Shown here: positions 5,545 to 52,860 of the stretch, piece by piece
Layout: each line of letters begins with the position of its first letter
Numbering within the stretch: the stretch's first letter is position 1
Origin: Burkholderiales bacterium
GTDB lineage: Bacteria; Pseudomonadota; Gammaproteobacteria; Burkholderiales; Burkholderiaceae_C
Assembly: GCA_016192425.1 (NCBI GenBank)
Contig: JACPUE010000066.1
Location: 99,306-163,305 of the forward strand
Reading direction: 5' to 3'
Length of the DNA stretch: 64,000 nt
Program-made: the position numbers and the translations under genes
The notes under the pieces: generated by a model
Told to the model about the DNA's origin: nothing
Databases searched by the model: none
The model's input: only the letters and a program-made list of their open reading frames with translations

Positions 5545-5662
5545 CGCGGCCTGAGCCAGGGCCACCGCGCAAGGGCCGCCCCGCAGCGCTGGTGGCGTCC
5601 CCCTTCCCGGCTCGCGCAGCGAGGCGAGAGAAGGGGGAAGGCGCGTAGCGCCACAGGGGGTT
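5545..5662 (-). repeat. REP-like ~125-bp GC-rich hairpin repeat, copy 1 (inverted orientation)
   Basis: Reverse complement matches the other copies: …CCCCCTG.GGCGCT.CGCGCCTTCCCCC…GGGAAGGGGGACGCCACCAGCGC…GGCCCTTGCGCGGTGGCCCTGG. Confidence 0.8.
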
Positions 5663-5714
5663 GTTGTCTATTTTCAAGCTGGCGCAGACCAGCGTGATCG
5701 ACAGGAGACACAGC

Positions 5715-6587
5715 ATGAACAAGCAGACCTTGCGGGTCGATGAAGGCGCCAGCGTGGCGCTGTGCGTGTTCGAGCCCGCAGGCGCGGCGCGCGCCAGCGT
5801 GGTCATCGGCGGGGCCATGGGGGTGCGGCAGGACTACTACGCATCGTTCGCCCAGTGGCTCGCGCAGCAGGGCTTTCGCGTCACCACCTTTGACTACCGG
5901 GGCCATGGCGATTCGCTCGTGGGCCCGATGCGCGAGGTGCGCGCCGACCTGTTCGATTGGGCGCGCGACTACGAGGCCGTGATTGCCGCCGCGCGTGTGG
6001 CACTGCCCGGGCAACCCCTGTACCTGCTGGGCCACAGCCTGGGCGCGCAACTGCCCGGCCTGCTGCGCAACCCCGGCCAGGTGGACGGCCTGCTCAGCGT
6101 GGCCGCGGGCAGCGGCTACTGGCGCGACAACGCGCCACGCCTCAAGCGCATGGTGCCGTACTTCTGGTGGGTGCTGGTGCCGCTGGCCACGCGCCTGTAT
6201 GGCTACTTCCCGGGCCGCAAGTTGCGCAAGGTGGGCGACCTGCCCGCAGGCGTGATCCTGCAATGGCGCCGCTGGTGCCTCAACCCCACCTACAGCGTGG
6301 GCGCCGAAGGGCCCGAGGTGGCGCAGCGCTACAGCGCGGTGCGCTTTCCGGTGCTGGCGCTGTCGATGAGCGACGACGAACTCATGACGCTGCGGGGCAC
6401 GCACGCCCTCGTCAACCTCTACAGCAACGCGCCCACGCGCGTCGAGCGCATTGCGCCGCAGGACGTGAAGGCGCTGCGCATCGGGCATTTCGGCTTTTTC
6501 CGCGAGCAGTTCCGTCAGACGCTGTGGCCGCGTGCGGTGGCCGACCTGGGGGCCCTGGCCCATCCGGCGGCGCAGTCGCCGGCATGA
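5715..6587 (+). CDS. alpha/beta-fold hydrolase
   Basis: GHSLG nucleophile elbow. AGGAGA RBS at 5703–5708. Confidence 0.7.
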   Translation: MNKQTLRVDEGASVALCVFEPAGAARASVVIGGAMGVRQDYYASFAQWLAQQGFRVTTFDYRGHGDSLVGPMREVRADLFDWARDYEAVIAAARVALPGQPLYLLGHSLGAQLPGLLRNPGQVDGLLSVAAGSGYWRDNAPRLKRMVPYFWWVLVPLATRLYGYFPGRKLRKVGDLPAGVILQWRRWCLNPTYSVGAEGPEVAQRYSAVRFPVLALSMSDDELMTLRGTHALVNLYSNAPTRVERIAPQDVKALRIGHFGFFREQFRQTLWPRAVADLGALAHPAAQSPA

Positions 6588-6623
6588 CGGTGGACAGGCG
6601 CATTTCACGGCACACTGGACACC

Positions 6624-7448
6624 ATGACGACACCGCATTCCTTTGACCAGGCCCTGGTGCTCGACACCTTGGCCGAGGGCCACTACCGGGGCCAGACACA
6701 CCCAGCCTACTGGAACATGGTCGGGCCGTTCGGCGGCATCACCGCAGCCACGGCGCTGCGCGCCATTCTGTCGCACCCCCGGCTGCTGGGCGAGCCACTG
6801 TCGCTCACGGTCAACTACGCCGGGGCTCCCACCACCGGGCCGTTCACGGTCGATGCCACGCCGGTGCGCACCAACCGATCGACCCAACACTGGAACGTGT
6901 CCATCGTGCAGGCCGGTGCGGACGGCGAGCCCGTGGTCACCACCACGGCCACGGCGGTCACGGCGGCGCGCCGCGACACCTGGAGCCTGGCCGACATGCC
7001 CATGCCCGAGGTGCCCCGGCCCGACACGCTGCCGCCCGTGCCGCCGGTGCCGGGCGTCGAATGGTTCAACCGCTACGACCTGCGGCCCGTGGCCGGTGCC
7101 CTGCCCCGGCAGTGGAACGGCCAGGGCGACAGCAGCCTCACGCAGCTGTGGATGCGCAACACGCCCGAGCGTGCACTGGACTTCTGCGGACTGGCGGCGC
7201 TGGCCGACGTGTTCTTTCCGCGCGTATGGCTGCGCCGCGCCGTGCATGTGCCCGCGGGTACCGTGTCCATCACGGTGTACTTCCATGCCAGCGCGCCGCA
7301 ACTGCAGGCCACAGGCACGGGCTACGTGCTGGGCCAGGCGCGCGCGCAGGAATTTCGCAACGGCTTTTTCGACCAGACCGCCCAGCTGTGGAACGAGGCG
7401 GGCACCATGCTCGCCACCAGCCACCAGATCGTCTATTACAAAGAATGA
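6624..7448 (+). CDS. tesB: acyl-CoA thioesterase II (TesB-like)
   Basis: 274 aa with a double hotdog architecture. N-terminus is typical of TesB. Confidence 0.7.
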   Translation: MTTPHSFDQALVLDTLAEGHYRGQTHPAYWNMVGPFGGITAATALRAILSHPRLLGEPLSLTVNYAGAPTTGPFTVDATPVRTNRSTQHWNVSIVQAGADGEPVVTTTATAVTAARRDTWSLADMPMPEVPRPDTLPPVPPVPGVEWFNRYDLRPVAGALPRQWNGQGDSSLTQLWMRNTPERALDFCGLAALADVFFPRVWLRRAVHVPAGTVSITVYFHASAPQLQATGTGYVLGQARAQEFRNGFFDQTAQLWNEAGTMLATSHQIVYYKE

Positions 7449-8254: not shown

Positions 8255-8287
8255 AGGTTTTTGAACAAATTGGCCTCTGGGGCCCGT

Positions 8288-8326
8288 CAATAAAGCGTAA
8301 GCAGCTATCAAAATAATAGCAATTGC
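8288..8326 (+). repeat. AT-rich palindromic motif copy (intergenic)
   Basis: CAATAAAGCGTAAGCAGCTATCAAAATAATAGCAATTGC. Confidence 0.7.
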
Positions 8327-9508: not shown

Positions 9509-9518
9509 GGAGGTTTTT

Positions 9519-17973: not shown

Positions 17974-18711
17974 ATGATCGAACTCAAGAACGTTTCCAAG
18001 TGGTACGGCTCCTTCCAGGTGCTCAACGACTGCTCCACCAGCATCAGCAAGGGTGAGGTGGTGGTGGTGTGCGGGCCCTCGGGCTCTGGCAAGTCCACGC
18101 TCATCAAGACAATCAATGCGCTCGAACCCATCCAGAAGGGCGAGATCTGGGTGGACGGCACAGCCATCCACGACCCCAAGACCAACCTGCCCAAGCTGCG
18201 CTCGCGCGTGGGCATGGTGTTCCAGCACTTCGAGCTGTTCCCCCACCTGTCGGTGACGGACAACCTGACCATCGCGCAGATCAAGGTGCTGGGCCGCAGT
18301 GCCGACGACGCCAGGAAGCGCGGCCTCAAGATGCTGGAACGCGTGGGCCTGATCGCCCACAAGGACAAGTTCCCCGGCCAGCTCTCGGGCGGCCAGCAGC
18401 AGCGTGTGGCCATTGCGCGCGCTCTCTCCATGGACCCCATCGTCATGCTGTTCGACGAACCCACCTCCGCACTCGACCCCGAAATGGTGGGCGAAGTGCT
18501 GGACGTGATGGTGGGCCTGGCCCACGAAGGCATGACCATGATGTGCGTGACCCACGAAATGGGCTTTGCCAAGCGCGTGAGCAACCGGGTGATCTTCATG
18601 GACGTGGGCGGCAAGATCCTGGAGGATTGCTCCAAGGAAGAGTTCTTCGGCAACCCCGACGCACGCCAGCCGCGCACCAAGGACTTCCTCAACAAGATCC
18701 TGCAGCATTGA
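17974..18711 (+). CDS. gltL: amino-acid ABC transporter ATP-binding protein
   Basis: Walker [10 protein letters not shown]. Signature [15 protein letters not shown]. Confidence 0.9.
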
Positions 18712-18723
18712 GGTAAGGGGGCA

Positions 18724-18848
18724 TCCCCCTGAGGCGTTGCGCGCCTTCCCCCTTCTCTTGGCTGTCGCCGGGAAGGGGGACGCCACCAGCGCCTGCACGG
18801 TGAAATGCTGGCGGCCCTTGCGCGGTGGCCCTGGTCTGGGCCGCGCGA
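18724..18848 (+). repeat. REP-like repeat, copy 2
   Basis: Same consensus. Intergenic between gltL and pyrC. Confidence 0.8.
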
Positions 18849-18970
18849 TCATTGAGGCCGTCGGCTCTTCACAGCGCCTTTGGGCGCTTTTTTGTGCCTT
18901 TTTTGCCTCCAGGCTGCATGCAGAAAGCGCTGGATGTTATGGTTTTGGAAGTCGCCGGCTGGGTGGGACA

Positions 18971-21094: not shown

Positions 21095-21188
21095 GCGGCC
21101 CCGCCGCGCTGGCGTGCGTCGTCCCCCTTCCCGCATCGCGCAGCGAGGCGAGAGAAGGGGGAAGGCGCGCAGCGCCTCAGGGGGTTGT
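21095..21188 (-). repeat. REP-like repeat, copy 3 (truncated; overlaps the 3' end of the COG2509 flavoprotein gene)
   Basis: Same consensus in inverted orientation. Confidence 0.75.
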
Positions 21189-22895
21189 CAGAATCTTTCG
21201 CGCCACGGCCTCGCCCACCTTGATGCCATCCACCCCGGCCGAGAGGATGCCGCCTGCATAGCTCGCGCCTTCGCCCGCCGGGTACAGGCCGACGGTGTTG
21301 AGGCTCTGGAAGTCCTCGCCCCGGGCGATCTTGAGCGGCGAGGAGGTGCGCGTTTCCACGCCGGTGAGCACGGCGTCGTGCATGTCGAAGCCCTTGATCT
21401 TGCGGCCAAAGGCCGGCAGGGCCTCGCGCAGCGCCTCGGTGGCGTAGCCGGGCAGGGCCTCGCGCAGGTCGCACAGCGTCACACCGGGCTTGTAAGAAGG
21501 TTCCACGCCGCCCAGTGCCTGCGAGGCGCGGCCCGCCAGAAAATCGCCCACGAGCTGGCTTGGCGCGTTGTAGTTGCTGCCGCCCAGCACGTAGGCATGG
21601 GCTTCGAGCTGGCGCTGCAGCACGATGCCCGCAAGCGGGTGGTGTTCGCCAGCCTTCAGCGCCTCCACGCCATACGTGGCGCCGAGCTGTGCCTCGAAGG
21701 TGGCGGGGTCGCTAGGGTAGTCTTGCGGATCGATGCCCACCACCATGCCTGCGTTGGCGTTGCGCTCGTTGCGCGAATACTGGCTCATGCCGTTGGTCAC
21801 CACGCGGCCGGGTTCGCTGGTGGCAGCCACCACGGTGCCGCCGGGGCACATGCAGAAGCTGTAGGCCGCGCGGCCGTTGCTGGCGTGGTGCACCAGCTTG
21901 TAATCGGCCGCGCCCAGCAGCGGGTGCCCTGCGTGGCGGCCCCAGCGCGCGCGGTCGATCACGCCCTGCGGGTGCTCGATGCGCAAACCCACCGAAAACG
22001 GCTTGGCCTGCATGTGCACGCCGCGCCCGTGCAGCATGGCGAAGGTGTCGCGCGAACTGTGGCCCAGCGCCATCACCACGTGGCGGGCCTCCAGCTCGTG
22101 GGTCTGGCCCGTGGCCTGGTCGAGCACGCGCAGGCCGCGCAGTTGGCGCTGGCCGGTGCTGTCCTGTTCGATGAGCACGTCGGTCACGCGCTGCTGGAAG
22201 CGCACCTCGCCGCCCAGCGCGATGATCTGCTCGCGCAGCGTCTCGACCACTTTCACGAGCTTGAAGGTGCCGATGTGCGGGTGCGCCACGTACAGGATCT
22301 CGGGCGGCGCGCCAGCCTGCACGAACTCCTCCATCACCTTGCGGCCCAGGTGGCGCGGGTCCTTGATCTGGCTGTAGAGCTTGCCGTCGGAGAAGGTGCC
22401 TGCGCCGCCTTCGCCGAATTGCACATTGCTCTCGGGGTTGAGCTCGCGCCGACGCCACAGGCCCCAGGTGTCCTGGGTGCGCTCGCGCACCGTTTTGCCG
22501 CGCTCCAGCACGATGGGCCGAAACCCCATCTGCGCCAGCACCAGCGCTGCAAAAATACCGCAGGGGCCAAAGCCCACGACCACGGGCCGTTCTTGCAAAG
22601 GGGCTGATGCATGACCCGGCGGGCGCCACTGCATGTCGGGCGCAGGGTGGATGTGGGGGTGACCCGCAAAGCGCGCAAGCAGCGCAGCTTCCTGTGCAGG
22701 CTGCGCCAGCGTGAGGTCGATGATGTAAACCGCCAGCACATCGGCCTTGCGGGCGTCAAAACTGCGTTTGTGTACGCGTACTTGCGCAATGTCCGCTGCC
22801 TGCAGGCCCAGGACGGTGGCCGCAAGCGTGTGCAAGGCTTCTTCGGGGGCGGCAACGGCGGCAAGCGGCAGCCGGAGTTCTGAAAGGCGGATCAT
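21177..22895 (-). CDS. FAD-dependent protein (COG2509-like NAD(FAD)-utilising dehydrogenase)
   Basis: GFGPCGIFAALVLA dinucleotide-binding motif. The 3' end of the gene reads through a REP-like repeat copy. Confidence 0.6.
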   Translation of the reverse strand: MIRLSELRLPLAAVAAPEEALHTLAATVLGLQAADIAQVRVHKRSFDARKADVLAVYIIDLTLAQPAQEAALLARFAGHPHIHPAPDMQWRPPGHASAPLQERPVVVGFGPCGIFAALVLAQMGFRPIVLERGKTVRERTQDTWGLWRRRELNPESNVQFGEGGAGTFSDGKLYSQIKDPRHLGRKVMEEFVQAGAPPEILYVAHPHIGTFKLVKVVETLREQIIALGGEVRFQQRVTDVLIEQDSTGQRQLRGLRVLDQATGQTHELEARHVVMALGHSSRDTFAMLHGRGVHMQAKPFSVGLRIEHPQGVIDRARWGRHAGHPLLGAADYKLVHHASNGRAAYSFCMCPGGTVVAATSEPGRVVTNGMSQYSRNERNANAGMVVGIDPQDYPSDPATFEAQLGATYGVEALKAGEHHPLAGIVLQRQLEAHAYVLGGSNYNAPSQLVGDFLAGRASQALGGVEPSYKPGVTLCDLREALPGYATEALREALPAFGRKIKGFDMHDAVLTGVETRTSSPLKIARGEDFQSLNTVGLYPAGEGASYAGGILSAGVDGIKVGEAVARKILTTP

Positions 22896-23084
22896 GGCTG
22901 GCGGGCCCGTGGTCATCGGGCATCGAGTCGATGTGGCGCCGGATTGTATCGAGCCGCCATGCGTCGGTGTTACACACGGTTTCAATGATCTCTGCGGAGC
23001 CGTCATCTTGGCGGATGTGGGGGGCGTTGTAGTCACAAGTCCGACGCGTTGTCGGACTGCTTACCAAAGTTCAAAGGAATCACC

Positions 23085-23345
23085 ATGAACAAACTTCTCG
23101 CTGCCCTGGTTGCTGGTTTTTTTGCTGTGACCTCGTTCGCTCAAACCCCTGCACCGGCGGCCGCTCCTGCAGCACCTGCAGCCGCAACGGCGCCAGCCGC
23201 AGCGCCCGCAGCCGCCAAGGAAGAGGCCAAGGCCGCTCCTGCTGCAACCGAGAAGGCCCCCGCTGCCGCAGCAACCAAGAAAGCAGCCAAGAAAACGCAC
23301 AAGACCAAGAAGGCCCGCGCTGCTGACACCAAGCCTGCACAGTAA
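23085..23345 (+). CDS. small secreted Ala/Pro/Lys-rich low-complexity protein
   Basis: RBS plus signal peptide. Followed by a strong terminator hairpin. Confidence 0.55.
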   Translation: MNKLLAALVAGFFAVTSFAQTPAPAAAPAAPAAATAPAAAPAAAKEEAKAAPAATEKAPAAAATKKAAKKTHKTKKARAADTKPAQ

Positions 23346-23395
23346 GGGCATCCCCCGTACCCTGGGAATCCACTGCCCAGGGACGTGCCCCCAAA

Positions 23396-23430
23396 ACAAA
23401 GAGCCCGCAATGCGGGCTCTTTGTTTTGGG
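23396..23430. terminator. bidirectional rho-independent terminator
   Basis: AAAGAGCCCGC-AAT-GCGGGCTCTTT followed by a T-run on the plus strand and an A-run on the minus strand. Confidence 0.7.
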
Positions 23431-23447
23431 GGCAACGCCGTGGCTGT

Positions 23448-32822: not shown

Positions 32823-33125
32823 CGGCGGGTGGTCTTTCGACCGGTACTTCCAATCAAGGTCTTGCGACCGTGGGCAGGAATCGAACCTGCGACAGACCCC
32901 TTGCGGGGGTTGCTCTACCAGACTGAGCTACCAGTGGTGACACGCCTGGAGTCGCACCGGGCACGTCCTTTCGGAGTGGCTACTGCAGCCGTGCCGTTAT
33001 CCAGCGCTTGCGGTGTGCGGCATGCAGGGCATCGACAGGGACCGAAGGCCCCGGACTTCCGGCACCGGCGGGGCGGACTTCTGTCCCAACCCCGGCCTGT
33101 GAGCGGTCACCGCTTGCGCTGGATG
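32823..33125 (-). ncRNA. Y-RNA (YrlA)-like non-coding RNA containing a tRNA-like module, transcribed from a sigma-54 promoter
   Basis: No credible ORF. GC-rich and highly structured. Contains a canonical D-arm and T-arm (see the 32868–32945 feature). Confidence 0.4.
32868..32945 (-). other. tRNA-like module (canonical D-arm and T-arm, non-canonical anticodon region, imperfect acceptor pairing)
   Basis: Minus-strand read: …CCACTGG-TA-GCTC-AGTCTGGTA-GAGC-A-ACCCCCGCAAGGGGT-CTGTC-GCAGG-TTCGATT-CCTGC-CCACGGT…. Confidence 0.5.
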
Positions 33126-38181: not shown

Positions 38182-38644
38182 GAAGCACGCCAGACCGCCG
38201 CTGGTGCAATCTGGGAAACCAGGCACTGGAGGAACGTCCGGACTGCACAGGACAGCGTAGCAGCTAACGGCTGCCCACCGTGAGGTGAGGATCAGAGCAA
38301 CAGAGACGAGTCCGAGCGTGGATGTGCCCATCGGGTGTTCTGCGGTTCGCCAGCGCAAGCTGGCGCGGCTGGCGCAAGCCAGACGGTGACGGGCGAAAGC
38401 CCGGCACGACGCAGCCACCCCGGGTGCGAAGCGCCCGGGGTGAAACGGGCAATCTCTACGCGCAGCAATACCAAGTAGGCCAGCCACGGGAGCAGGGCGA
38501 CCTCTCTCGACCTTGTGGATCCGCAGGGAGAGCTGGCGGGTAGGTAGCACCGAGCCGGGTGGGCGACCCCCGGCCCAGAGTAATGGCGGTCACGCTGCGG
38601 GCAACCGCAGTGCACAGAATCCGGCTTATCGGCGCGCTTCACAC
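38182..38644 (+). ncRNA. rnpB: RNase P RNA (bacterial type A)
   Basis: P4/universal elements are present: GGAGGAACGTCCGGAC…, GGGGTGAAACGGG…, ACAGAATCCGGCTTATCGG. A P1 helix pairs GAAGCACGCC with GGCGCGCTTC. Confidence 0.8.
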
Positions 38645-38664: not shown

Positions 38665-38709
38665 CCAACGCTTATGGAATAAGCGCTGGCAGCTATCATT
38701 TTTGAAATT
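38665..38709. repeat. AT-rich motif, inverted pair (intergenic, just 3' of rnpB)
   Basis: CCAACGCTTAT-GG-AATAAGCGCTGGCAGCTATCATTTTTG. Confidence 0.7.
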
Positions 38710-39898: not shown

Positions 39899-39994
39899 TT
39901 GCTTGCCTCCTCAGCGATGCGCATCACCCTCATCGCTTGAGGCGGGCGTGCCCCATCCCCAGGCGCCGCAGGCGCCACAGAGGGGTGTTCGTGA

Positions 39995-41275
39995 TCACCC
40001 AATCAGATCCAGCCCCGCCGCATCGGCCAGCGCATCGCCCAGCCCGCCTTCCTGGTGGCGCAGCATGTGGCCTGCCAACTGGTTCACGCCACCCTTGATG
40101 TGCAGCGTGACCGATTCGAGCTTCATGGCGTATTCGTTCACCCGCGCAAAGGGCCGGTAAAAGCCCAGCGTCAGCAGCGTGAGCATCAGGTTGCGCACGC
40201 GCAGCCAGACGAATGCGCGCACGCTCAGCGTGCAGCGAAAGCGGGCCACCTGGCTCACGCCGATGTTGTTCCACTGCAGCAGGAACATGCGCGCTTCGCG
40301 GTAGGCTCGCGCCGGGGCCGAGGCCAGCAGCAAGAGCATGAACAGCGCAATGAATCCGAACAGGAACACGAAGAACACCCACACCCCTGCGTTCTTGCCC
40401 AGGCCCGCCAGCAGTGCGACCGAGCCCCCCGCAGCCAGCGCCACCAGTGCTGCCATGCCCAGCACGCCCAGCACGCTCAGCAGGAACACGCCCACCGTGG
40501 TGAGCCAGATCTTGACGAAATCCATGTACACCGGCTTCCAGCGCCCGGCCTCGGCGCCCAGGTGGGTGCGCAGCACCAGCAGGCTTTTGTAGTTGTATTC
40601 CAGCCGGATGAAGCACAGCACAGAGAGCGCCACGCCCAGCAGCAGCAAACCCCACAGCGCTGGCGGCAGGGGCGGCATTGCGTGCCCTTTGCCGCCTTCG
40701 GCTGCGGGGGTGGCGCCATCCAGCGCCTCGGCCAGCGCTGGGGCCGCCCAACGCAGGCCAAAGACCACGCCAATCCACACCAGTGCAATGGCAAACACGG
40801 GCCAACTGGCGCTGTACACATCGCGCCACGAGGCCAGAAACTGCAGCCGCAGGCCGCGCCAGCGTGTGTTGCCCAGCCGGAACCGCATGGCGCTGGCCCA
40901 CAGGTAGGGTGCCAGCGCTGCGCCAGCCAGCACCAACAGAGCGGCGGCAGTGTCCTGCCGGGTGTTCACGGCGATCTTGTAGGCCAGCGTCAGCAGCACC
41001 AGCAGCACAAAGCCCTTGACCATCTTGCCTTGCGGGGCGGTGAATTCCAGCGGACTGTCGGCCACCAGGGTGTGGCCATAGAAGTACTGTGCCGTGCGGC
41101 GCCGCGCCCAGGGGGTGTACCACCCCAGGGTCACGATGCTCAGCAGCACGTTGACGATCCAGACGCGGAAATACTCCCCACCGCTGCCGGAAAACGCCAG
41201 CGGGTGGGCGTCGATCGATGCCGACGCCAAGGGTGCCGCCTGTGCCGAAGCATTGCTGCGGGGCTTGTGTTCCAT
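39995..41275 (-). CDS. DUF898 (YjgN-like) membrane protein
   Basis: Multi-TM protein. Typical partner of the M48 peptidase. Confidence 0.65.
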   Translation of the reverse strand: MEHKPRSNASAQAAPLASASIDAHPLAFSGSGGEYFRVWIVNVLLSIVTLGWYTPWARRRTAQYFYGHTLVADSPLEFTAPQGKMVKGFVLLVLLTLAYKIAVNTRQDTAAALLVLAGAALAPYLWASAMRFRLGNTRWRGLRLQFLASWRDVYSASWPVFAIALVWIGVVFGLRWAAPALAEALDGATPAAEGGKGHAMPPLPPALWGLLLLGVALSVLCFIRLEYNYKSLLVLRTHLGAEAGRWKPVYMDFVKIWLTTVGVFLLSVLGVLGMAALVALAAGGSVALLAGLGKNAGVWVFFVFLFGFIALFMLLLLASAPARAYREARMFLLQWNNIGVSQVARFRCTLSVRAFVWLRVRNLMLTLLTLGFYRPFARVNEYAMKLESVTLHIKGGVNQLAGHMLRHQEGGLGDALADAAGLDLIG

Positions 41276-41361
41276 GGTCTCCCTCCAGGATGGCCGGGCA
41301 GTGTAGCAGTGGAGGGTGGATTGTGATTTGAAAGCGCTCGCAGGGCATGTATCCACAGCGT

Positions 41362-41386
41362 GGGCAGCTATGGTTTTTGATGGTGC
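41362..41386 (+). repeat. AT-rich motif, half copy (intergenic)
   Basis: GGGCAGCTATGGTTTTTGATGG. Confidence 0.45.
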
Positions 41387-41394
41387 TGCCACGG

Positions 41395-41432
41395 CCCAGG
41401 CGCGCAGCGCCACAGGGGGGTGTCAGAATTTT
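41395..41432 (-). repeat. REP-like repeat, short terminal fragment
   Basis: Only …GCGCAGCGCCACAGGGGGGTG…. It sits next to an AT-rich motif copy. Confidence 0.5.
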
Positions 41433-42208
41433 TCCCAGGGCTGCAGGTAGCGCCACTGCCCTTCGGGCACCTTGGCCAGCGGCACGCGGCCGATGCGGAT
41501 GCGCTTGAGGGACAGCACCTGCAGGCCCACGGCCTCGCACATGGCCGGGATCTGGCCGGGGCGGATGCCCTTGAGTGCGAAGCGCAGCCGCGTTTCGTTC
41601 TGCCAGCTCACCTTGATGGGGGGCAGCGGCCGGCCGTTGAACGAGAGGCCATGGCAGAGCTTCTGCAGACCGCCTTCTGCGATCTGGCCTGCCACCTCGG
41701 CGATGCATTCCTGCTCCAGCGTTTCGATGTCCTCGGCCAGCTTGCGCGCGATGCGCTTGTCCTGCGTGTAGACCACGAGCCCGCTGGCCGGGGTGGGCAG
41801 CGGTGTGAAGCATTCAAGCTGCTTGAAATGGCGCAGCAGCACGCGGATGCCCGCGGCATCCTCGGGCAGGTGGCTCTGCGCGTTCAGCAGCGTGAGGGCG
41901 GAGGGTGCGCCCTGGCTGCGGCTGCCATGCGCGGCTGCGCCCGCGTCCAGCCCCAGCCCCGCTTCATAGCCCGGCGGCTTGTGCAGCAGCAGGGTGACGG
42001 GGGTGAGCGCCAGCAGGCTGGCGTCTTTCTCTACCGTCACCGCCTGGCCGGGGCGCACGCGTGCGCCAGGGAGTTCCACCACCTGGCCTTCCACGCGCAC
42101 AAAGCCGCCTTCGATGTACTGCTCGGCGGTGCTGCGCGAGCAGGCCAGTTGTTCGGCCACACGTTTGGCCAGGCGGATGTGGCTGGGGTCAGGGTTCTTG
42201 TCGGTCAT
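41423..42208 (-). CDS. rRNA pseudouridine synthase (RsuA/RluB family; S4 domain plus catalytic domain)
   Basis: S4-like N-terminus and the conserved …LLHKPPGY… segment. Confidence 0.75.
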   Translation of the reverse strand: MTDKNPDPSHIRLAKRVAEQLACSRSTAEQYIEGGFVRVEGQVVELPGARVRPGQAVTVEKDASLLALTPVTLLLHKPPGYEAGLGLDAGAAAHGSRSQGAPSALTLLNAQSHLPEDAAGIRVLLRHFKQLECFTPLPTPASGLVVYTQDKRIARKLAEDIETLEQECIAEVAGQIAEGGLQKLCHGLSFNGRPLPPIKVSWQNETRLRFALKGIRPGQIPAMCEAVGLQVLSLKRIRIGRVPLAKVPEGQWRYLQPWEKF

Positions 42209-42229: not shown

Positions 42230-43894
42230 TCAGTTGTTGCCGGGCTGCTGCGCGCGGATGCGCTCCACATGCGCGATCAGCGAGCGCTGGGCCAGCGGCC
42301 ACATGCGTGGCGGCACGTCGGCGTAAGCCAGTTCCACCCACTGCTCCACCGTGCCTTCGGGCAGTGCCTGCATGGCGGCGATGACCTTGGCCTCGCGCGC
42401 CAGGCGGTGGCCCTTGAGCTGGGCGATGGCGCCGCGTGCCTCGCCCAGCACATGGCCGTGCGCGGGCAGGATGAACGCCACGCCGTGTTCGGCGCAGAGC
42501 GCATCGAGCCGGTCGAGCGCGTCGAGGTAGTCGGCCATGTTGCCGTCGGGCGGGTTGATGATGGTGGTGCTGCCGTTGAGGATGTGGTCGCCACTGAACA
42601 GCAGGCCGTCCTCGCGCAGCAGCAGGCACACATGGTTGGCCGCGTGGCCCGGCGTGTGCACCACCTGCAGGGTGTGGGTGATTTCGCCGTCCAGCCCTTT
42701 GCCAGTAAGCGTGAGCAGCTCATTGTTTGATAGCGCCCGGTCGGGCGTGAACTGGCTGTCAGCGCGCGCCGTGGGGGCCGAGGGCAGGCCCAGGATGGGC
42801 GGCGTGGCGCGGCCCGCGCGCTGGCACATCTGCTGCAGCGGCTTGCTGCCTGGCGAGTGGTCGGGGTGCGAATGCGTGCATACGATCATGCGGATGTCGC
42901 CGCCCGCGGCGCGCCACAGGCGCTCCAGGTGCTCGACGTCTGCCGGGCCGGGGTCGATGGCGACGTAGCCCGTGGCCGGGTCGCCCACCAGGTAGCTGTT
43001 GGTGCCGGGGCCGGTCATCACGCCGGGGTTGGGGGCGGTCAGGCGCTGCACGTTCTTCAGCAGCGGCACGGCGCGCTCGCTCTGCCAGTCGAGCGGGTGG
43101 GCGATCTGCCCGTCGGGGCAAACCAGGGCCAGCTCGCCGAAGGGCATTTCGTCCTCCATGTAGCGCGCTTCCTTGCCATTGAGCAGGCCCGCGCGCGGGC
43201 AGCTCGTCCACAGCGGGGCTTCGCTCACGGCGCAGGCGGCCAGCACATCGTCCACGCGCGCGAAGGGCGCCAGCCGCTGCAGCGTGCGGATGGTCGGGAA
43301 GATCATGAAGAAGCCGCCGCCCGCGTGGCGCTCCAGGGCGTCCTGCGGGCGCACCCATTGGGGCTCGAACTGCTCGGCCTCGTCGGCCACGGGCGTCTGG
43401 CCTTCGGGCATGCGCGCCACCAGAAACGGCACATCAAAGCGCTTGGGCAGGTCGCGGTCGGTGATCCAGCGCGCCAGGGTGAACACCCCGTCGGCGGCCA
43501 GCCGCAGGCCGCGCGCCTGGCATTGTGCGGCGAACGGGGCCTGGCGGTCGAGCGCGGCGATGTCGTCGGCCCCGGCCCAGCGGCCATCGGCATGGCGCGC
43601 CAGCAGCACGCCCAGCTCCTCGAAGCTCTCGCGGATGGCGGCAATGGCCTCGGTGAGCTGTTCGTCGCCCTGCGTGGCGCGGCGTGCGGCGGCGTGGTGC
43701 GATTGTGTGTCCAGCGCGTCGATGCCGCCGCCGGGGAACACGTAGGCGCCCGGCGCAAAGCTGGCTTGCTGCGAGCGCCGCGTCATCAGCACCTCCAGCC
43801 CCTGCGCGCCATCGCGCAGCAGCAGCACGGTGGCGGCGTTCAGGGTGGGGACGGGGGGGCGGGGCGGGTGCAGGAGCTGGCTGGGGCGTGTCAT
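42230..43894 (-). CDS. NUDIX hydrolase fused to an MBL-fold metallo-hydrolase
   Basis: Nudix box …AIRESFEELGV…. C-terminal HSHPDH and HTPGH motifs. Confidence 0.7.
   Translation of the reverse strand: MTRPSQLLHPPRPPVPTLNAATVLLLRDGAQGLEVLMTRRSQQASFAPGAYVFPGGGIDALDTQSHHAAARRATQGDEQLTEAIAAIRESFEELGVLLARHADGRWAGADDIAALDRQAPFAAQCQARGLRLAADGVFTLARWITDRDLPKRFDVPFLVARMPEGQTPVADEAEQFEPQWVRPQDALERHAGGGFFMIFPTIRTLQRLAPFARVDDVLAACAVSEAPLWTSCPRAGLLNGKEARYMEDEMPFGELALVCPDGQIAHPLDWQSERAVPLLKNVQRLTAPNPGVMTGPGTNSYLVGDPATGYVAIDPGPADVEHLERLWRAAGGDIRMIVCTHSHPDHSPGSKPLQQMCQRAGRATPPILGLPSAPTARADSQFTPDRALSNNELLTLTGKGLDGEITHTLQVVHTPGHAANHVCLLLREDGLLFSGDHILNGSTTIINPPDGNMADYLDALDRLDALCAEHGVAFILPAHGHVLGEARGAIAQLKGHRLAREAKVIAAMQALPEGTVEQWVELAYADVPPRMWPLAQRSLIAHVERIRAQQPGNN
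42706..42738 (+). repeat. AT-rich motif copy inside the NUDIX–MBL gene
   Basis: AGTAAGCGTGAGCAGCTCATTGTTTGATAGCGC. Confidence 0.6.
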
Positions 43895-43907
43895 GAAGGC
43901 ATTATGA

Positions 43908-44034
43908 GCACCCCCCTGAGCGGCTGCGCCGCTTCCCCCCGCTCTCGCCTCGCGTTGCGAGGCGGGCAGGGGGACGCCGCCGGTGCGGCGGGGCGGCCCT
44001 TGCACGGCGGCCCTGGCCTGGAGCACGCCGGTAG
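43908..44034 (+). repeat. REP-like repeat, copy 5
   Basis: Same consensus. Confidence 0.8.
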
Positions 44035-44070
44035 CATGCGCTGTGGACGATGCGTGTCGATGGGCGGAAT

Positions 44071-44775
44071 TCAGCCTCGTGCCGGAATCTCCAGCCCGCG
44101 CTGCACGGCCGGCCGCTCGACGAAGGCCGCCAGCGCGCGCTGCACCTGCGGGAAGCGGTCGAACTCCACCAGTTCGCCCGCGCCATAAAAGCCCACCAGG
44201 TTGCGCACCCAGGGGAAGATGGCGATGTCGGCAATGGTGTATTCGTCGCCCATGACCCAGCGGCGGCCCGCCAGGCGCTGCTCCAGCACGCCGAGCAGGC
44301 GTTTGGATTCGGCCACGTAGCGGTCGCGCGGGCGCTTGTCCTCGTAGTCCTTGCCCGCGAACTTGTGGAAGAAGCCGAGCTGGCCGAACATCGGCCCCAC
44401 GCCGCCCATCTGCCACATCAGCCATTGCAGCGTCTCGAAGCGCGCGGTGGTGTCTGCGGGCAGAAAGCGCCCGCTTTTGCTCGCCAGGTACACCAGGATG
44501 GCGCCCGACTCGAACAGCGCAAAGGGTTTGCCGTCCGGGCCGTGCGGGTCGATGATGGCGGGGATCTTGTTGTTCGGGTTGAGCGAGAGGAACTCGGGCG
44601 AGAGCTGGTCGTTGGTATCGAAGCTCACCAGGTGCGGCTCGTAGGGCAGGCCGGTTTCCACCAGCATGATCGACACCTTCACGCCGTTGGGCGTGGGCAG
44701 GGAGTAGAGCTGGATGCGGTCCGGGTGCTGGGGCGGCCATTTGCGGGTGATGGGGAAAGCGCTCAGGTCATTCAT
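44071..44775 (-). CDS. glutathione S-transferase (Nu/YghU-like)
   Basis: GST N- and C-terminal domains. Confidence 0.8.
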
Positions 44776-44854
44776 CGGAAAGCTCCTTGCGGAAAAAACA
44801 CAGCCGGACAAGGCACCGTGCCACGGTGCGGCGACAGCTACGATAATCCAAGCC

Positions 44855-45733
44855 ATGCAGATCCGCTTTACCAAGATGCAGGGTGCGGGCAATGACTTTG
44901 TCGTGCTCGACGAGACCCAGGAACGCCTGGGGCTCACGCCCGCGCATTACCGCTTTCTGGCCGACCGCCACTTCGGCGTGGGGGCCGACCAGATCCTGAC
45001 CGTGCGCCCCGCGCCTGCGCCGGGCCTGGACTTTGAATACGTGATCCACAACGCCGACGGCGGCGAGGTGGAGCAGTGCGGCAACGGCGCGCGCTGCTTT
45101 GCGCGCTATGTGCGCGACAAGGGGCTCACCGCCAAGGACCGCATCCGCGTGCAGACGCTGTCGGGCGTGATCGCACCCGAACTCACCCCCGACGGCCGCG
45201 TCACCGTGGACATGGGCCGCCCGCAGTTCGACCCGGCGCGCGTGCCCTTCGACGCTGCAGGCCTGGTGCCCGTGCCCCAGGGTTTGGGGCAAAAATGGCC
45301 TCTTGCGCTGGATGGGCAAGCGCAGGCAGCTACTGTTTTGATAGCGGTTGTCTCGATGGGCAACCCGCATGCCGTGCAACTGGTGGAGGACGTGGACACC
45401 GCCCCGGTGGCGCAGACCGGCCCGCTCATCGAGTGCCACACCCGTTTTCCGCAGCGCGTGAACGCGGGCTACCTGCAAGTGGTGGACCGCAGCCATGTGC
45501 GCCTGCGCGTGTACGAGCGCGGTGCGGGCGAAACCCTGGCCTGCGGTACCGGCGCCTGCGCGGCCGTGGCGGCGGGCATCCGCCTGGGGCTGCTCGATGC
45601 GCGCGTGGACGTGCAGACGCGCGGCGGCCTGGTCACCATCGCCTGGAGCGGCCAGGAGGCCGACTCCGTGTTCCTCACCGGCCCCGCCGTGACCGTGTTC
45701 GAAGGCCAGATCGACATTCCCGACGCACCATGA
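44855..45733 (+). CDS. dapF: diaminopimelate epimerase
   Basis: Collinear with E. coli DapF (…GNDF…VVSMGNPH…CGTGACA…). Confidence 0.9.
45301..45347 (+). repeat. AT-rich motif copy inside dapF
   Basis: CTTGCGCT…CAAGCGCAGGCAGCTACTGTTTTGATAGCGG. Confidence 0.6.
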
Positions 45734-46455: not shown

Positions 46456-46462
46456 CGTGGAA

Positions 46463-46585
46463 CACCCCCCTGAGCGGCTGCGCCGCTTCCCCCCGCTCTC
46501 GCATCGCTGCGCGTTGCGGGCAGGGGGACGCCACCAGCGCGGCGGGACGGCCCTTGCGCGGTGGCCGCTGGCTTGGGCAGCGCTC
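46463..46585 (+). repeat. REP-like repeat, copy 6
   Basis: Same consensus. Between yigA and xerC. Confidence 0.8.
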
Positions 46586-46647
46586 ATGTTGCGGGTGGTT
46601 GGCGATGCTCCGTGTTGTGGAGCGATGAACCGATTGGCGCGAAAGGC

Positions 46648-47595
46648 ATGACCCCCGCGCCGCTGCCCCCCGAAGCCCTGCGCTACCTGGAGCATGTGCG
46701 CGTGGAAAAGCGCCTGGCCGCGCGCACCGTCACCCTGTACACGCTGGACCTGCAGCGCCTGCAGCAGGTGGCCGCGCAGGCGGGCCTGCCCCTGCTGCAA
46801 TTGCAGACCGCACACATTCGCCGCGCTGTGGCGCAGATGCATGCGGGCGGGCGCAGCGGGCGCGGCATTGCGCTCATCCTCTCGGGCTGGCGCGGCTTTT
46901 ACCTGTGGGCCGCACGCCAGGGGCTGACCGAGCACAACCCCGTGCAGGGTGTGCGTGCGCCCAAGGCCCCCAAGCCCTTGCCCAAGGCCCTGGACGTGGA
47001 TGATGCGGTGCGTCTGGCCGACCATGCCGAAGACGGCGCCGACCCCTGGCTGGAGGCGCGCGATGCCGCCATGGTCGAACTGCTGTACGGCTGCGGCCTG
47101 CGCGTGGGCGAGCTCGAAGGCCTGGACGTGGCCCCTGGCCCCGACACCGAGCGCCTGGGGCGCGGCTGGATCGACCTGCAGGCCGCCGAAGTGCATGTGC
47201 GCGGCAAAGGCAGCAAGCGCCGCAGCCTGCCCCTGGGTGCGGCGGCGCTGCAGGCGCTGCAGGCCTGGCTGGCACAGCGCGCCACGCCGTTTGCGCCCGG
47301 CCGGCTGGACGCTGCGCTGTTCCTGGGCCAGCGCGGCACGCGCCTGTCGGCCCAATCCATCTGGCTGCGCCTGCGCCAGCGCAGCCAGCAGGCCGGGCTG
47401 AGCACGCCGGTGCACCCGCACATGCTGCGCCACTCCTTTGCCAGCCACCTGCTGCAAAGCAGCGGCGACCTGCGCGCCGTGCAGGAGCTGCTGGGCCACG
47501 CCAGCATCACCACCACGCAGGTCTATACCCGGCTGGACTACCAGCACCTGGCCAAGGTGTACGACCAGGCGCACCCACGGGCGCGGCGCAAGTAG
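46648..47595 (+). CDS. xerC: site-specific tyrosine recombinase XerC
   Basis: R…HxxR…Y catalytic residues (…HMLRHSFASHLL…TTQVYT…). Confidence 0.85.
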   Translation: MTPAPLPPEALRYLEHVRVEKRLAARTVTLYTLDLQRLQQVAAQAGLPLLQLQTAHIRRAVAQMHAGGRSGRGIALILSGWRGFYLWAARQGLTEHNPVQGVRAPKAPKPLPKALDVDDAVRLADHAEDGADPWLEARDAAMVELLYGCGLRVGELEGLDVAPGPDTERLGRGWIDLQAAEVHVRGKGSKRRSLPLGAAALQALQAWLAQRATPFAPGRLDAALFLGQRGTRLSAQSIWLRLRQRSQQAGLSTPVHPHMLRHSFASHLLQSSGDLRAVQELLGHASITTTQVYTRLDYQHLAKVYDQAHPRARRK

Positions 47596-47620
47596 TCCAG
47601 GGGCAGGCGACAATCCGGCG

Positions 47621-48846: not shown

Positions 48847-48897
48847 AATGCTATAAAAATAATAGCTGCTTGCGCATGATGTGAAAGCGCTAGAGGC
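48847..48897. repeat. AT-rich motif, inverted pair (intergenic, between rlmI and zigA)
   Basis: GCTATAAAAATAATAGCTGCTTGCGCATGATG…GAAAGCGCTAGAGGC. Confidence 0.7.
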
Positions 48898-50949: not shown

Positions 50950-50994
50950 GAAAGCGCACCCTTTGAGTTTTTGCCGCGCAACACGCCAGCCATC

Positions 50995-52734
50995 ATGAGC
51001 AAGGACGACAATCCCTCCTCCGGCGGCGGCCTCCTGTCCAAGGTGGTGCGTTTCGTGCGCAACCCCACGGTCAACTGGTCCGAGCTGGACTCCATCCAGG
51101 ACGACAAGGAGAGCCAGTACAGCAAGCAGATGCTCAAGGAAATGATCGAGCGCAAGCGCCGCAACGACTTCGTGCGCCGCCGCGAATTCGATCAACTGCG
51201 CAAGCTGCGCCAGCGCGACGCGCTCAGCGGCCAGCGCACGGCCGACCTGGCAGCGCGCCCCTCGTTCTTCCAGAGCAGCCTCACCTCGCCCGGCGAGCGC
51301 GCCGTCACGATCAAGAAGATCGACGAGATCGAGGCGCAAATGTCCATGCAGTGGTGGAAGAGCAAGCAGGCGGGCGAAAACCCCGAAAGCACAGCCCCCA
51401 TGCAGGCGGGTGCTGCCCTGGCCAATGCGCCCACCATGCCCGCGCCGGCCAATGCCTATGCGCCAACGGCGCCCCTGGATCTGCAACCCACCCCTCCCGT
51501 GCGCACGGCGCCAGAGCCGCTGTTTGCGGGCGACAGCCTGGCCGCACAGGAAACCCCCGTTCCGCAGGAAGAGCCCGATGTGGCCACCTGGAACATGGGC
51601 GCGGGCAGCTCTGCACCTCGGGCCGCACCGGCCTTGGAGAAATTCGTGCACGAACCCGACCTCGAAGAAGCCGCCATCCGCTTTGCCAATGGCGACTACG
51701 CGGGCGCAGAGGCGGGCCTGCTGGAAGTGCTGGAGCGCCACAGTGCCGACGGAGCCGACGCCCAGTTCGACATCTGGATGACGCTGTTCGACCTGTACCG
51801 CGCCACCGGCCAGCAGGACCGGTTCGATGCACTGGCCATCGACTTTGCCGGGCGCTTTGCGCGCTCGGCCCCGCTGTGGTTCTCCATCCCCGAACAACTG
51901 GGCCTGCAGGCGGCCGTGCAGGCAGAGCCTGCCGCACCCAAGCGCGAATTTTCCTGGAACGCACCCGCCGCCATGGCGCTGCAGTCCGTGGCCGCGCTGC
52001 AGGCGTCCATCAACCGCTCGGCCTCCCCCTGGACGCTGACCTGGACGCGCCTCAAGTCCATTGAAGATGCGGCGGTCACCGCACTGGCCAACGAGTTCAG
52101 CCGCTGGGCCGACATGAAAGGGCAGTTCGTATTCACGGGCGCGCAAGCGCTGCTGACCCTGCTGCAGGAACACACCCAGTCGGGCGACCGCGAGGCCAAC
52201 CCCGAATGGTGGCGCCTGCGCATGGCAGTGCTGCGCTTCATGGGGCAGGCCGACGAGTTCGAGATGGTGGCGCTGGACTACTGCGTCACCTACGAAGTGT
52301 CGCCGCCGTCCTGGGCCAACCCCCTGTGCGGCTACAGCGACGACGCCACCCCCGAGGCCGCACCCGCAGCGCAGCCAGCGCAAGACCTGGTCGCGCGGCC
52401 GCACTGGAAAGACAGCACCACCCCGGCGCCGCTCACAGGCTTTGGCGATTCGGTACCCGCGCTGGCCGGGCTCACCGGCCACATCGAGGGCGACGCCACC
52501 CACCTGCTCGAAGGCATGCAGGACCATGTGCCAGCGGGCCATCCGCTGGCCATCCCGTGCGACAAGCTCATCCGCATCGACTTCACCGCGGCGGGCTCGG
52601 TGCTCAACTGGGCCGCCCAGCAGCAGGCCCAAGGGCGCGAGGTGCAGTTCCATAACCTGCACCGCCTGGTGGCCGTGCTGTTCAACGTGCTGGGCGTCAA
52701 CGAGCACGCCTGGGTGCTGCCGCGAAAAAATTAG
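50995..52734 (+). CDS. hypothetical protein (N-terminal charged/low-complexity region; two C-terminal repeats, possibly STAS-like)
   Basis: 579-aa ORF with good coding statistics. No confident family assignment. Confidence 0.5.
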   Translation: MSKDDNPSSGGGLLSKVVRFVRNPTVNWSELDSIQDDKESQYSKQMLKEMIERKRRNDFVRRREFDQLRKLRQRDALSGQRTADLAARPSFFQSSLTSPGERAVTIKKIDEIEAQMSMQWWKSKQAGENPESTAPMQAGAALANAPTMPAPANAYAPTAPLDLQPTPPVRTAPEPLFAGDSLAAQETPVPQEEPDVATWNMGAGSSAPRAAPALEKFVHEPDLEEAAIRFANGDYAGAEAGLLEVLERHSADGADAQFDIWMTLFDLYRATGQQDRFDALAIDFAGRFARSAPLWFSIPEQLGLQAAVQAEPAAPKREFSWNAPAAMALQSVAALQASINRSASPWTLTWTRLKSIEDAAVTALANEFSRWADMKGQFVFTGAQALLTLLQEHTQSGDREANPEWWRLRMAVLRFMGQADEFEMVALDYCVTYEVSPPSWANPLCGYSDDATPEAAPAAQPAQDLVARPHWKDSTTPAPLTGFGDSVPALAGLTGHIEGDATHLLEGMQDHVPAGHPLAIPCDKLIRIDFTAAGSVLNWAAQQQAQGREVQFHNLHRLVAVLFNVLGVNEHAWVLPRKN

Positions 52735-52737
52735 CAT

Positions 52738-52860
52738 GCTCCCCCCTGAGGCCCTGCGGGCCTTCCCCCCTCTCTCGAATCGCTGCGCGATTCGGGAGGG
52801 GGGACGCTCCCAGCGCGGCGGGGCGGCCCTTGCGCGGGAGCCCTGGTCTGGGGCGCGCCA
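52738..52860 (+). repeat. REP-like repeat, copy 7
   Basis: Same consensus. Upstream of hslV. Confidence 0.8.

Follow-up and report, generated by a model that had tools for sequence, protein, structure and literature searches.

A three-hairpin extragenic repeat of Comamonadaceae attached in sense orientation to gene 3' ends

What kind of element is a GC-rich repeat that turns up at one gene boundary after another, and what holds it there? The question is raised by a 64,000-nucleotide (nt) stretch of a Burkholderiales genome (GCA_016192425.1, contig JACPUE010000066.1, 99,306-163,305 of the forward strand), referred to below in its full length as the window. A sequence-only reading had described seven copies of a hairpin repeat there and called it REP/BIME-like, after the repetitive extragenic palindromes (REPs) and bacterial interspersed mosaic elements (BIMEs). 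Coordinates given here are window positions, except where a label such as L126 designates a locus of a relative, and copies, numbered c1 to c8 in the window, are oriented with CCCCCTGAG as the 5' start. In our judgement it is rather probably a composite extragenic repeat of the REP/BIME class, non-coding and non-autonomous, that is specific to a large part of the Comamonadaceae.

The class assignment follows from behavior: the repeat is abundant, extragenic and palindromic with compensatory stems, leaves no target-site duplications, has served as the target of an IS110-family insertion sequence (IS) and is attached to the 3' ends of open reading frames (ORFs). It is of the REP/BIME kind in these respects, yet it departs from the strict definitions of REPs and BIMEs in several others. 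The class is an ordinary one; what is unusual is the strictness of placement, in the sense orientation and anchored to the stop codon, which is a sharper form of a known REP property that lacks an explanation. The element is thereby an unusually clean case of the unexplained attachment of REP-type repeats to ORF 3' ends, and its readable orientation makes insertion mechanism and RNA-level selection testable against each other. It is nevertheless a member of a familiar class.

The element appears to be without prior description, as a search of the literature for this Comamonadaceae repeat returned none. At gathering threshold, Rfam recognized only RNase P RNA and one tRNA in the window and has no family for the element, and a permissive Rfam scan of copy c7 gave only chance-level matches of the microRNA type. 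Its practical importance lies in annotation. The element causes spurious ORFs and read-through gene calls, and in some real genes it has changed the final codons together with the stop, as with an FAD-dependent protein gene in the window and xerC in a relative. A covariance model would clean annotation in Acidovorax, Comamonas, Delftia, Hydrogenophaga, Simplicispira and related genera.

Architecture and covariation of the repeat

The anatomy was derived from an alignment of 131 pattern-bearing copies from the window and other genomes. The conserved span starts about 6 nt before a first run of C residues, with a weak GAACA[AC] motif, and extends to about 43 nt past GGCGGCCC; a canonical copy measures approximately 126-134 nt. 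From 5' to 3' the unit consists of an A-rich leader of about 6 nt, a run of five or six C residues, TGAG, hairpin H1, TT, hairpin H2, a GACG junction, hairpin H3 and a tail. H1 has a stem of 5 base pairs (bp) and a 3-nt loop. H2 is built on a C5-6/G5-6 base and encloses an interior of 1-32 nt, with an inner stem that ranges from nothing to about 10 bp, for a total of 11-42 nt. The junction itself is ACG, which reads GACG together with the final G of H2 and so adjoins the H2 foot; its A, C and G positions are 82-92% conserved, the last G falling to 62% in copies with the second of two H3 variants. These variants are alternative conserved tops, variant A with GCGGCGGGGCGGCCCTTGCGC in 66 copies, including every window copy, and variant B with GTGGCCCGGCAAAGCCGGTTCCAC in 50. 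The tail, CTGGnnTGGGnnGCGCCAGTTTCA, pairs weakly, its helix being 75% paired. In c7, the canonical full copy (52734-52867, +; 133.9 bits under the covariance model described below), the C-run occupies 52741-52746, TGAG 52747-52750, H1 52750-52762, H2 52765-52803, the GACG junction 52803-52806 (which shares its first G with the H2 end and its last with the H3 start), H3 52806-52841 and the tail 52842-52867.

The minimum-free-energy fold of c7 consists of exactly these hairpins (z = -3.0 to -3.1), and folds of other single copies return the same hairpins at z of about -3 on either strand. Covariation provides the stronger evidence. In 40 hand-checked copies, 90.2% of the cells are paired and 22 pairs have changed on both sides; compensatory cells number 117, compared with 38.6 after shuffling (reached in 0 of 500 shuffles) and 13-33 in slid controls. 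Among 106 copies from many genera, which were aligned by and thus fitted to the model, 90.1% of cells are paired, 31 of 40 pairs covary and the compensatory cells number 464, versus 132.6 for shuffled and 54-101 for slid controls. Because compensatory changes exceed both kinds of control, H1, H2 and H3 are real helices, with stems maintained by compensatory change and unpaired motifs maintained in sequence. The hairpin-forming character recognized in the sequence-only reading therefore stands, but in place of an 8-bp stem and a distal palindrome there are three covarying hairpins, in a unit longer than had been described.

The first C-run and the tail may in addition form a closing helix of six positions, the five main ones each pairing in 78-85% of copies. 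Covariation is uninformative on this helix because the C-run never varies. Closed in this way, the unit might resemble a four-way, tRNA-like junction; ARAGORN reported only a tRNA-Cys gene in the window.

The long open frames that cross the element might be taken to mean that the copies encode a small protein or peptide. Spurious ORFs had indeed been predicted, and mechanical ORFs of at least 100 amino acids (aa) run across every full copy; in the relative L126 the called upstream gene reads through the element. Many copies also have an ATG or GTG a few bases before the C-run. This explanation is already refuted, however, in that H2 lengths vary in steps that are not multiples of three, so that no reading frame is kept, and that the changes in the stems are compensatory in nucleotides and radical in amino acids. 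Furthermore, ATGA is found at 12% of true upstream stops, against a background of 12%.

Dispersal and attachment to stop codons

The motif CCCCCTGNGNNNNTNCGNNNNTTCCCCC, which comprises H1 and its flanks, matches the window exactly six times; dinucleotide shuffles average 0.17 matches and none of 100 reached six. Repeat detection placed the family at 5.5, 18.7, 21.1, 43.9, 46.5 and 52.7 kilobases (kb), and the sequences confirm these sites together with a fragment at 41.4 kb. A covariance model built from the 40 copies scores the six window copies at 77-136 bits and the fragment at 18.8 bits. All seven copies of the sequence-only reading are thus real and lie where they had been placed. Its inventory needs correction in that an eighth, at 39944-39992, had been missed, that the copy at 21.1 kb is truncated and that the one at 41.4 kb is an H1-only deletion remnant. 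Of the eight copies in the window, five are full, one is truncated and two are remnants with H1 only.

The repeat is also truly dispersed and not confined to the window. When species-representative genomes were scanned, at least 119 loci matched; among the matches listed nearly all belong to Acidovorax, Comamonas, Delftia, Hydrogenophaga, Simplicispira, Ottowia, Curvibacter, Melaminivora and unnamed Burkholderiaceae bins. Similarity through a duplicated gene fragment is ruled out, as 120 upstream proteins fall into 104 clusters; these have no functional theme. Simplicispira sedimenti and several metagenome bins encode an HslV identical to the one in the window, whose source is accordingly a Simplicispira-like comamonad. 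Across 80 metagenome loci with XerC relatives, the element was confined to those with XerC identities of 80% or more, apart from a single locus at 72%, and was absent from about 60 loci at or below approximately 70% identity; the repeat family is therefore clade-restricted. Mobile replicons hardly carry it (2 of 72,556 plasmid records, 5 of 2.9 million viral contigs). With eight sites in the 64-kb window and about 35 extra copies per 761 kb in 100 ascertained 8-kb loci (roughly one per 22 kb), the suggested several hundred copies per genome are a plausible order of magnitude, extrapolated from these two densities. The element probably stands at the start of the 3' untranslated region (UTR) of about one gene in ten in these genomes. 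At L047 (2873-4539) at least five short-form copies, with minimal H2 and variant-B H3, are arranged head to tail with a period of about 122 nt, which recalls the variable-number tandem arrays of the Bordetella repeat BRE.

Since the unit is asymmetric, its orientation can be read directly. In 102 of 114 copies, a co-oriented ORF with coding-type GC3 (G+C at third codon positions) ends 3-29 nt, mostly 3-17 nt, before the C-run, the element's own TGA being the stop in three of them. An independent greedy gene caller found the upstream gene co-oriented in 117 cases and opposed in 13. Approximately 80% of copies lie between co-directional genes, with the next start a median of 43 nt away, and here 82 sense copies stand against 4 antisense ones (p ~6e-20), two of the latter being c1 and c5 of the window. 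The first C-run begins a median of 6-7 nt past the upstream stop codon. In convergent spacers (n = 17), where a copy in either direction is sense to one of the two genes, the median distance from the sense stop to the 5' end is 6 nt, whereas that from the 3' end to the stop of the other gene is 52 nt (p = 8e-5). The model alone found a further 24 matches in sequences without the exact pattern, and 18 of these are no more than 25 nt away from a sense stop.

The window conforms to this rule, as c2, c3, c4, c6, c7 and c8 are all sense and stop-adjacent, behind genes for ABC ATPase, FAD-dependent, S4-domain, DUF898, DUF484 and STAS-domain proteins (by Pfam). The statement of the sequence-only reading that copies occur in both orientations is correct only when the + strand is the reference; judged against the neighboring genes there is one orientation, in six of eight window copies and about 90% of all loci. 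Placement strictly at gene boundaries was borne out, all copies being intergenic and one overlapping a stop codon, at 21177-21179. Upstream genes do not differ from background in the stop codons used or in the base that precedes them. The notions of the element as a usual supplier of stops, or as an overlapping ORF of the kind found in MIRU repeats, were discarded, stop usage being background-like and only a few copies supplying the stop.

Because there is no room for a terminator before the element, in about 90% of copies the CCCCCTGAG strand should form the beginning of the transcribed 3' UTR, and co-transcription into 3' UTRs is what the arrangement of the genes predicts. An RNA-level role in 3' UTRs, as in the earlier suggestion of mRNA-stabilizing or termination elements, fits the sense orientation; the termination half of that suggestion does not hold. 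On that view the copies would be transcription terminators or terminator-like structures of shared ancestry, an explanation that can point to the gene 3' ends, the sense orientation, the GC-rich hairpins and a tail that often ends in CCAG-TTTCA or TTTT. Yet there is no proper U-tract, the tail helix has only the 75% pairing given above, and a terminator scan found none at the full copies, its sole overlap with the family being a weak stem of five pairs on the opposite strand of the c4 remnant. The prevalent position between co-directional genes, shortly before the next start, also speaks against it. Most directly, a terminator-like hairpin with a T-run lies at 18870-18897 (+), 25 nt past c2 and outside the repeat; it is of the classical intrinsic type, kept in relatives with substitutions on both stem arms, and c2 therefore sits between the stop codon and a separate terminator. 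We regard termination as very unlikely to be what these copies are for.

The same placement recalls the attC sites of integron gene cassettes, which are structured imperfect palindromes with a variable center that lie past the ORF stop in a fixed orientation. The element shares the position directly past the stop codon in the orientation of the ORF, the imperfect palindromes with variable center and conserved ends, and a length within the attC range. Genomic context, however, refutes the comparison: instead of forming a cassette array, the copies lie 2.5-25 kb from one another among housekeeping genes of either strand, and the genes upstream of them belong to the conserved core, with synteny that is stable across relatives. 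The flanking genes that were scanned include no integron integrase, xerC being the only tyrosine recombinase, and the ends do not fit the RYYYAAC/GTTRRRY core-site consensus. That these are attC-like recombination sites is scarcely credible.

Turnover, related systems and mode of spread

Orthologous sites reveal how individual copies change. Copy c7 is present in every relative with an identical HslV, and its core is 92-99% identical among them, compared with 90% for the adjacent gene and 65-93% for the adjacent spacers; such high conservation argues for some constraint. Between the window (52771-52797) and L121-L126, the inner stem of H2 in c7 has been swapped wholesale, CGAATCGCTGCGCGATTCG versus GCTTCGCTTCGCTTGC, with the other 100 nt identical; gene conversion and hairpin-templated repair are possible explanations. 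In L127 (1644-2606), the c7 orthologue is interrupted by an IS110-family IS (DEDD_Tnp_IS110) within H1, between TGAG and the stem, which fits the habit of that IS family of targeting REP-type repeats.

At other sites copies have been reduced. The c8 site holds full copies in L130 and L132; the window lacks 82 nt there, comprising H2 and H3, and the junction joins GCCT to GGG. The c4 site is full in L130, L132 and L134, with a junction of the same type in the window, so that both remnants retain the leader, C-run, H1 and tail only. The GCCT-to-GGG junction recurs at a third site in an unrelated genome. The c3 site is full in L215 and L218 and has been reduced in L216 and L217 to CAACCCCCTGAG, the part that supplies the stop of the FAD-protein gene. 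At the c2 site, relatives differ in the presence of a 12-nt insertion in H3, and an 8-nt deletion destroys H1 in L216 and L220. The DUF484-xerC spacer, which holds c6 in the window, has no element in L133, L134 and L145, and in one relative a copy behind xerC supplies the xerC stop, where the window has none. All differences that could be resolved between relatives are losses, mostly between short direct repeats inside the element. The idea that the copies are recombination hotspots is upheld in this form, as deletion hot spots, together with the one IS110-family insertion. The copy in L022 was considered as an orthologue of c2 and set aside; the flanks fail to align, and the upstream proteins are paralogous ABC ATPases.

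This turnover bears on whether each copy is kept because it is useful. On such an account, the host selects the element as an RNA that acts in cis, and it is not selfish DNA; as a module of the 3' UTR it would cooperate with RNases or with the terminating ribosome. A translation-dependent switch of the single G-run between the two C-runs, tuning of mRNA decay, and a block to scanning or re-initiation are possibilities. Several observations suit it: conserved unpaired motifs together with covarying stems are the signature of a structured RNA, the orientation is strictly sense with the 5' end at a distance of 0-15 nt from the stop, the first C-run never varies and each of its five main positions can pair with the tail in 78-85% of copies, and the c7 core is better conserved than the flanking spacer and the neighboring gene. 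There is also a possible precedent in E. coli, where REPs within about 15 nt of a stop reportedly lower expression by ribosome stalling, as Liang, Rudd and Deutscher are said to have found in 2015. Against it stand the lack of a functional theme among the upstream genes and the loss, in close relatives, of H2 and H3, of most of the element or of one H1 arm, with no visible replacement. The H2 interior varies from 1 to 32 nt, tandem arrays occur (L047), two window copies are antisense, and the invariance of the C-run deprives the closing helix of a covariation test. A strong function at every single site is hard to square with the frequent deletions and the missing gene theme. We consider selection of every copy unlikely, though a serious alternative to the REP/BIME-class reading; the selfish-spread and selected-RNA views are not mutually exclusive.

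For the REP/BIME-class reading, the closest published counterparts are the GTAG- and CGTC-tagged REPs surveyed by Di Nocera et al. 2013 (PMC3733652), a survey in whose named species the Comamonadaceae are missing. Like these, the element is abundant and extragenic (intergenic at all eight window sites), consists of GC-rich imperfect palindromes with compensatory stems, and is presumed to be transcribed. Published REPs border upstream ORFs on their 3' side and in some cases provide the stop codon (PMC3733652), and here too the element lies near the upstream ORF 3' end, at variable distance from the downstream ORF, occasionally supplying the stop. Further likenesses are the use of one copy as an IS110-family target, the lack of target-site duplications and the presence of a RAYT-like Y1 transposase family (after REP-associated tyrosine transposases, RAYTs) in the same bacteria. 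The bottom strand of the element also has CGTC directly 5' of the H2 hairpin, which recalls the CGTC-tagged REPs, for which a transposase is not known (PMC3733652).

The differences are equally clear. In place of a simple palindrome of 20-40 nt, the element is a set of three different hairpins in fixed order and fixed orientation over about 125 nt. H1, H2 and H3 are unrelated to one another and form no inverted dimers, unlike BIMEs and REPINs, and clustering is only head to tail (L047). The four published CGTC families have stems of 8-9 bp that start with A-T pairs and loops of 4-5 nt (PMC3733652), whereas the stems of the element begin with C/G runs and neither stem nor loop fits. Its gene orientation is about 90-95% one way, unlike that of published REPs. 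Accordingly, the label REP/BIME-like is apt for a dispersed, non-coding, hairpin-forming and extragenic repeat; it fails where simple palindromes, inverted dimers or membership in a published CGTC family are meant.

A second candidate for kinship is BRE, an intergenic repeat of about 90 bp in Bordetella and other Betaproteobacteria (Hot et al. 2011, PMC3110155). Under a similarity criterion of more than 70% identity, that study counted 13 BRE copies in Delftia, 29 in Polaromonas and 1-4 in Acidovorax, and the small RNAs bprJ1 and bprJ2 of Bordetella are transcribed from a BRE region (PMC3110155). By eye, the reverse complement of BRE has a similar layout of C-run, short hairpin, C6/G5 hairpin and GGCGGCCC, and both repeats occasionally form tandem arrays (L047 here). 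Unlike the element, BRE has flanking T- and A-runs and no equivalent of H3. Homology to the Bordetella BRE found no support, as an nhmmer profile of the element detected no such BRE above 400 shuffles, and the BRE core pattern is absent from the 64-kb window. More distant parallels are BOX of Streptococcus pneumoniae and MIRU of mycobacteria, modular intergenic repeats built from distinct boxes or hairpins around a variable middle module. MIRUs are co-oriented with flanking genes at ORF boundaries in operons, where their short ORFs overlap the neighboring stop and start. The element is similarly modular with a variable middle and has no sequence relationship to either; unlike MIRU, it was found on testing to have no ORF that overlaps a neighboring stop or start.

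How such copies spread is constrained by their ends. In a permutation test on 127 copies, the longest direct flank match averaged 4.07 nt, compared with 3.95 nt in permuted pairs, and thus gave no sign of target-site duplication; copy-specific terminal complementarity in the same copies was 4.06 nt versus 4.13 nt. These values weigh on the view of the element as a miniature inverted-repeat transposable element (MITE) that derives from a DDE-type IS and is moved by its transposase. High copy number and dispersal would suit a MITE, and one subfamily ends in (A)TGAAAC...GTTTCA(T), a TG...CA inverted pair, its 5' GAAAC and 3' GTTTC occurring together above chance (Fisher p = 6e-4); this co-occurrence also means that the leader lies inside the element. 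However, the missing duplications refute a MITE weakly, and the missing terminal complementarity adds to this. The TGAAAC/GTTTCA ends are missing from most copies, DDE insertion does not predict a gene-tied orientation, and no longer parent element was found in about 2 Mb of related loci. A MITE origin is, if anything, a shade less believable than the terminator explanation.

Spread through single-stranded DNA with an HUH/Y1 enzyme of the RAYT kind acting in trans is the most plausible route, because there are no duplications, CGTC adjoins a hairpin and a RAYT-like gene is present; judged from these sequence features, new copies would probably arise in this way. When searched with E. coli RayT, taken from a K-12 record, a Comamonas testosteroni locus gave a weak match (L001, 2-433, -) that Pfam assigns to Y1_Tnp. 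This RAYT-like family has about 8,000 database relatives, one of which is named 'REP element-mobilizing transposase RayT' by its source. The gene, of 234 aa, is present in single copy in conserved synteny directly upstream of gltB, at 2501-3205 in each of L223 (Acidovorax SUPP950), L225 (Comamonas sp. lk) and L227 (C. terrae), and it looks like a vertically inherited, domesticated transposase. The RAYT papers PMC2817692 and PMC6006769 do not mention these genera.

Once in an mRNA, the unit would fold into three stable hairpins that would hinder 3'-to-5' exonucleases, as REPs do elsewhere, and the terminating ribosome would meet this structure. Folding of the 5' part would depend on translation, because a ribosome at the stop would reach up to or over the first C-run, which begins a median of 7 nt further on, at the edge of its mRNA channel. 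We also considered, as a distinctly unlikely extension, that the placement reflects mechanism and not later selection, by way of either non-template-strand insertion or an RNA fold that senses translation termination. In the insertion version, which is speculative, copies would enter the non-template strand where it is exposed by the uncoupling of ribosome and RNA polymerase at the stop; such insertion would account for both anchoring and orientation and, if true, also for the 3'-end location of REPs generally. In the RNA-fold version, the ribosome on the stop would cover the first C-run, and the two C-runs would compete differently for the single G-run. If true, more than 10% of the genes of these bacteria would have a 3' UTR whose state is coupled to translation.

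Several findings weigh against the REP/BIME-class reading and its mode of spread. No fresh insertion and no clean empty site was found among the orthologous sites compared; the apparently empty ones are too diverged to align or hold deletion remnants, and no insertion junction can be defined there. Mobility is thus deduced from dispersal, because every polymorphism seen is a loss, and the stem-destroying deletions in close relatives speak against a strong function at every site. No fixed target motif was found beside the 5' end. Hairpins alone leave the orientation bias of about 95% unexplained, since a palindrome can fold whichever strand is taken. On the strand proposed as RNA, paired cells include 159 G-U versus 82 A-C in the model-fitted alignment, an excess that agrees weakly with folding of the CCCCCTGAG strand and is only 2:1. 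Finally, the element does not flank the RAYT-like gene, unlike REPs in REP/RAYT systems. There is no model match within 1.7 kb of the gene in L223, L225 and L227, and C. testosteroni has only a 13-nt motif upstream of it. A RAYT-like gene, whose adjacency had been proposed as a check, therefore exists in the family as a candidate enzyme, but it is unflanked by the element in the four genomes examined, where the gene is accompanied only by element-like scraps and, in Acidovorax, also by a second, AT-richer repeat.

This second intergenic repeat, TTGCTATTnnnnnATAGCTGCnnGCGCTT..., occurs in the window at 876-891, 8266-8322, 38681-38696, 41330-41390, 48862-48877 and 53514-53570. It fills the DUF484-xerC spacer of L134, the site of c6 in the window, follows the main element in L012, L013 and L090, and lies just upstream of the Acidovorax RAYT-like gene (L223, 2398-2425). 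It could be the real partner of that gene.

Individual copies and other features of the window

Among the full copies, c1 (5529-5668, -) has the highest score at 135.7 bits. It is flanked, by Pfam, by a thiolase gene (4261-5502, +) and an alpha/beta-hydrolase gene (5694-6587, +) and is antisense to both, with its 5' end toward the hydrolase start. Copy c5 (43904-44037, +; 126.5 bits) is likewise antisense to both of its Pfam-assigned neighbors, a NUDIX/metallo-beta-lactamase gene (42230-43894, -) and a GST gene (44071-44937, -). In L130 (6279-7418), a 379-aa metallophosphoesterase-like gene on the + strand occupies the spacer that corresponds to 43895-44070 of the window, and the odd orientation of c5 may be the relic of a lost gene that was formerly upstream.

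The remaining copies are sense. The C-run of c2 (18717-18855, +; 77.4 bits), whose H3 loop carries the 12-nt insertion, begins 13 nt past the stop of the ABC ATPase gene (17974-18711, +). Copy c3 (21095-21192, -; also 77.4 bits) is truncated to the leader, C-run, H1, H2 and the 5' arm of H3, and the stop of the FAD-dependent protein gene (21177-23036, -) is the element's TGA within CCCCCTGA. The C-run of c6 (46458-46592, +; 121.3 bits; neighbors by Pfam) lies 10 nt past the stop of the DUF484 gene, which ends at 46455 (+), with xerC downstream, and that of c7 lies 6 nt past the stop of the STAS-domain gene, which ends at 52734 (+), with hslV downstream. The H1-only remnants are c8 (39944-39992, -), with leader GAACA, a mutated C-run CCCCTC, H1 and the tail, 9 nt past the stop of the DUF898 gene (39995-41413, -), and c4 (41395-41427, -; 18.8 bits), 4 nt past the stop of the S4-domain protein gene (41423-42208, -). 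The latter abuts the copy of the second repeat at 41330-41390.

Two further places resemble the element. At 50950-50990, past the dksA stop, GAAAGCGCACCCTTTGAG... is similar to the leader, C-run and TGAG and could represent a ninth remnant in an advanced state of decay; in L145 the same site behind dksA holds a full copy. A 21.6-bit model match at 23323-23463 was rejected as an extra copy, since it comes from an unrelated 45-nt perfect intergenic hairpin, CCCCCAAAACAAAGAGCCCGCATTGCGGGCTCTTTGTTTTGGGGG (23385-23432), which has the look of a bidirectional terminator.

Beyond the repeats, the window holds the RNase P RNA, of class A, at 38182-38644 (+; 165 bits) and the tRNA-Cys gene at 32866-32938 (-). 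Directly downstream of xerC, L132 (10945-20539) and L134 (10939-20440) have about 9.5 kb of extra DNA that is absent from the window (47595-47606) and may be an island integrated beside the recombinase gene. From 55168 to 64000 the window contains the start of the dcw (cell-division/cell-wall) cluster, with MraZ at 55168-55668 followed by a Methyltransf_5 (RsmH-type) gene, as in the gene calls of relatives, and three paralogous P-loop motifs of the Mur-ligase type in this region produce the direct repeats D2, D5 and D9.

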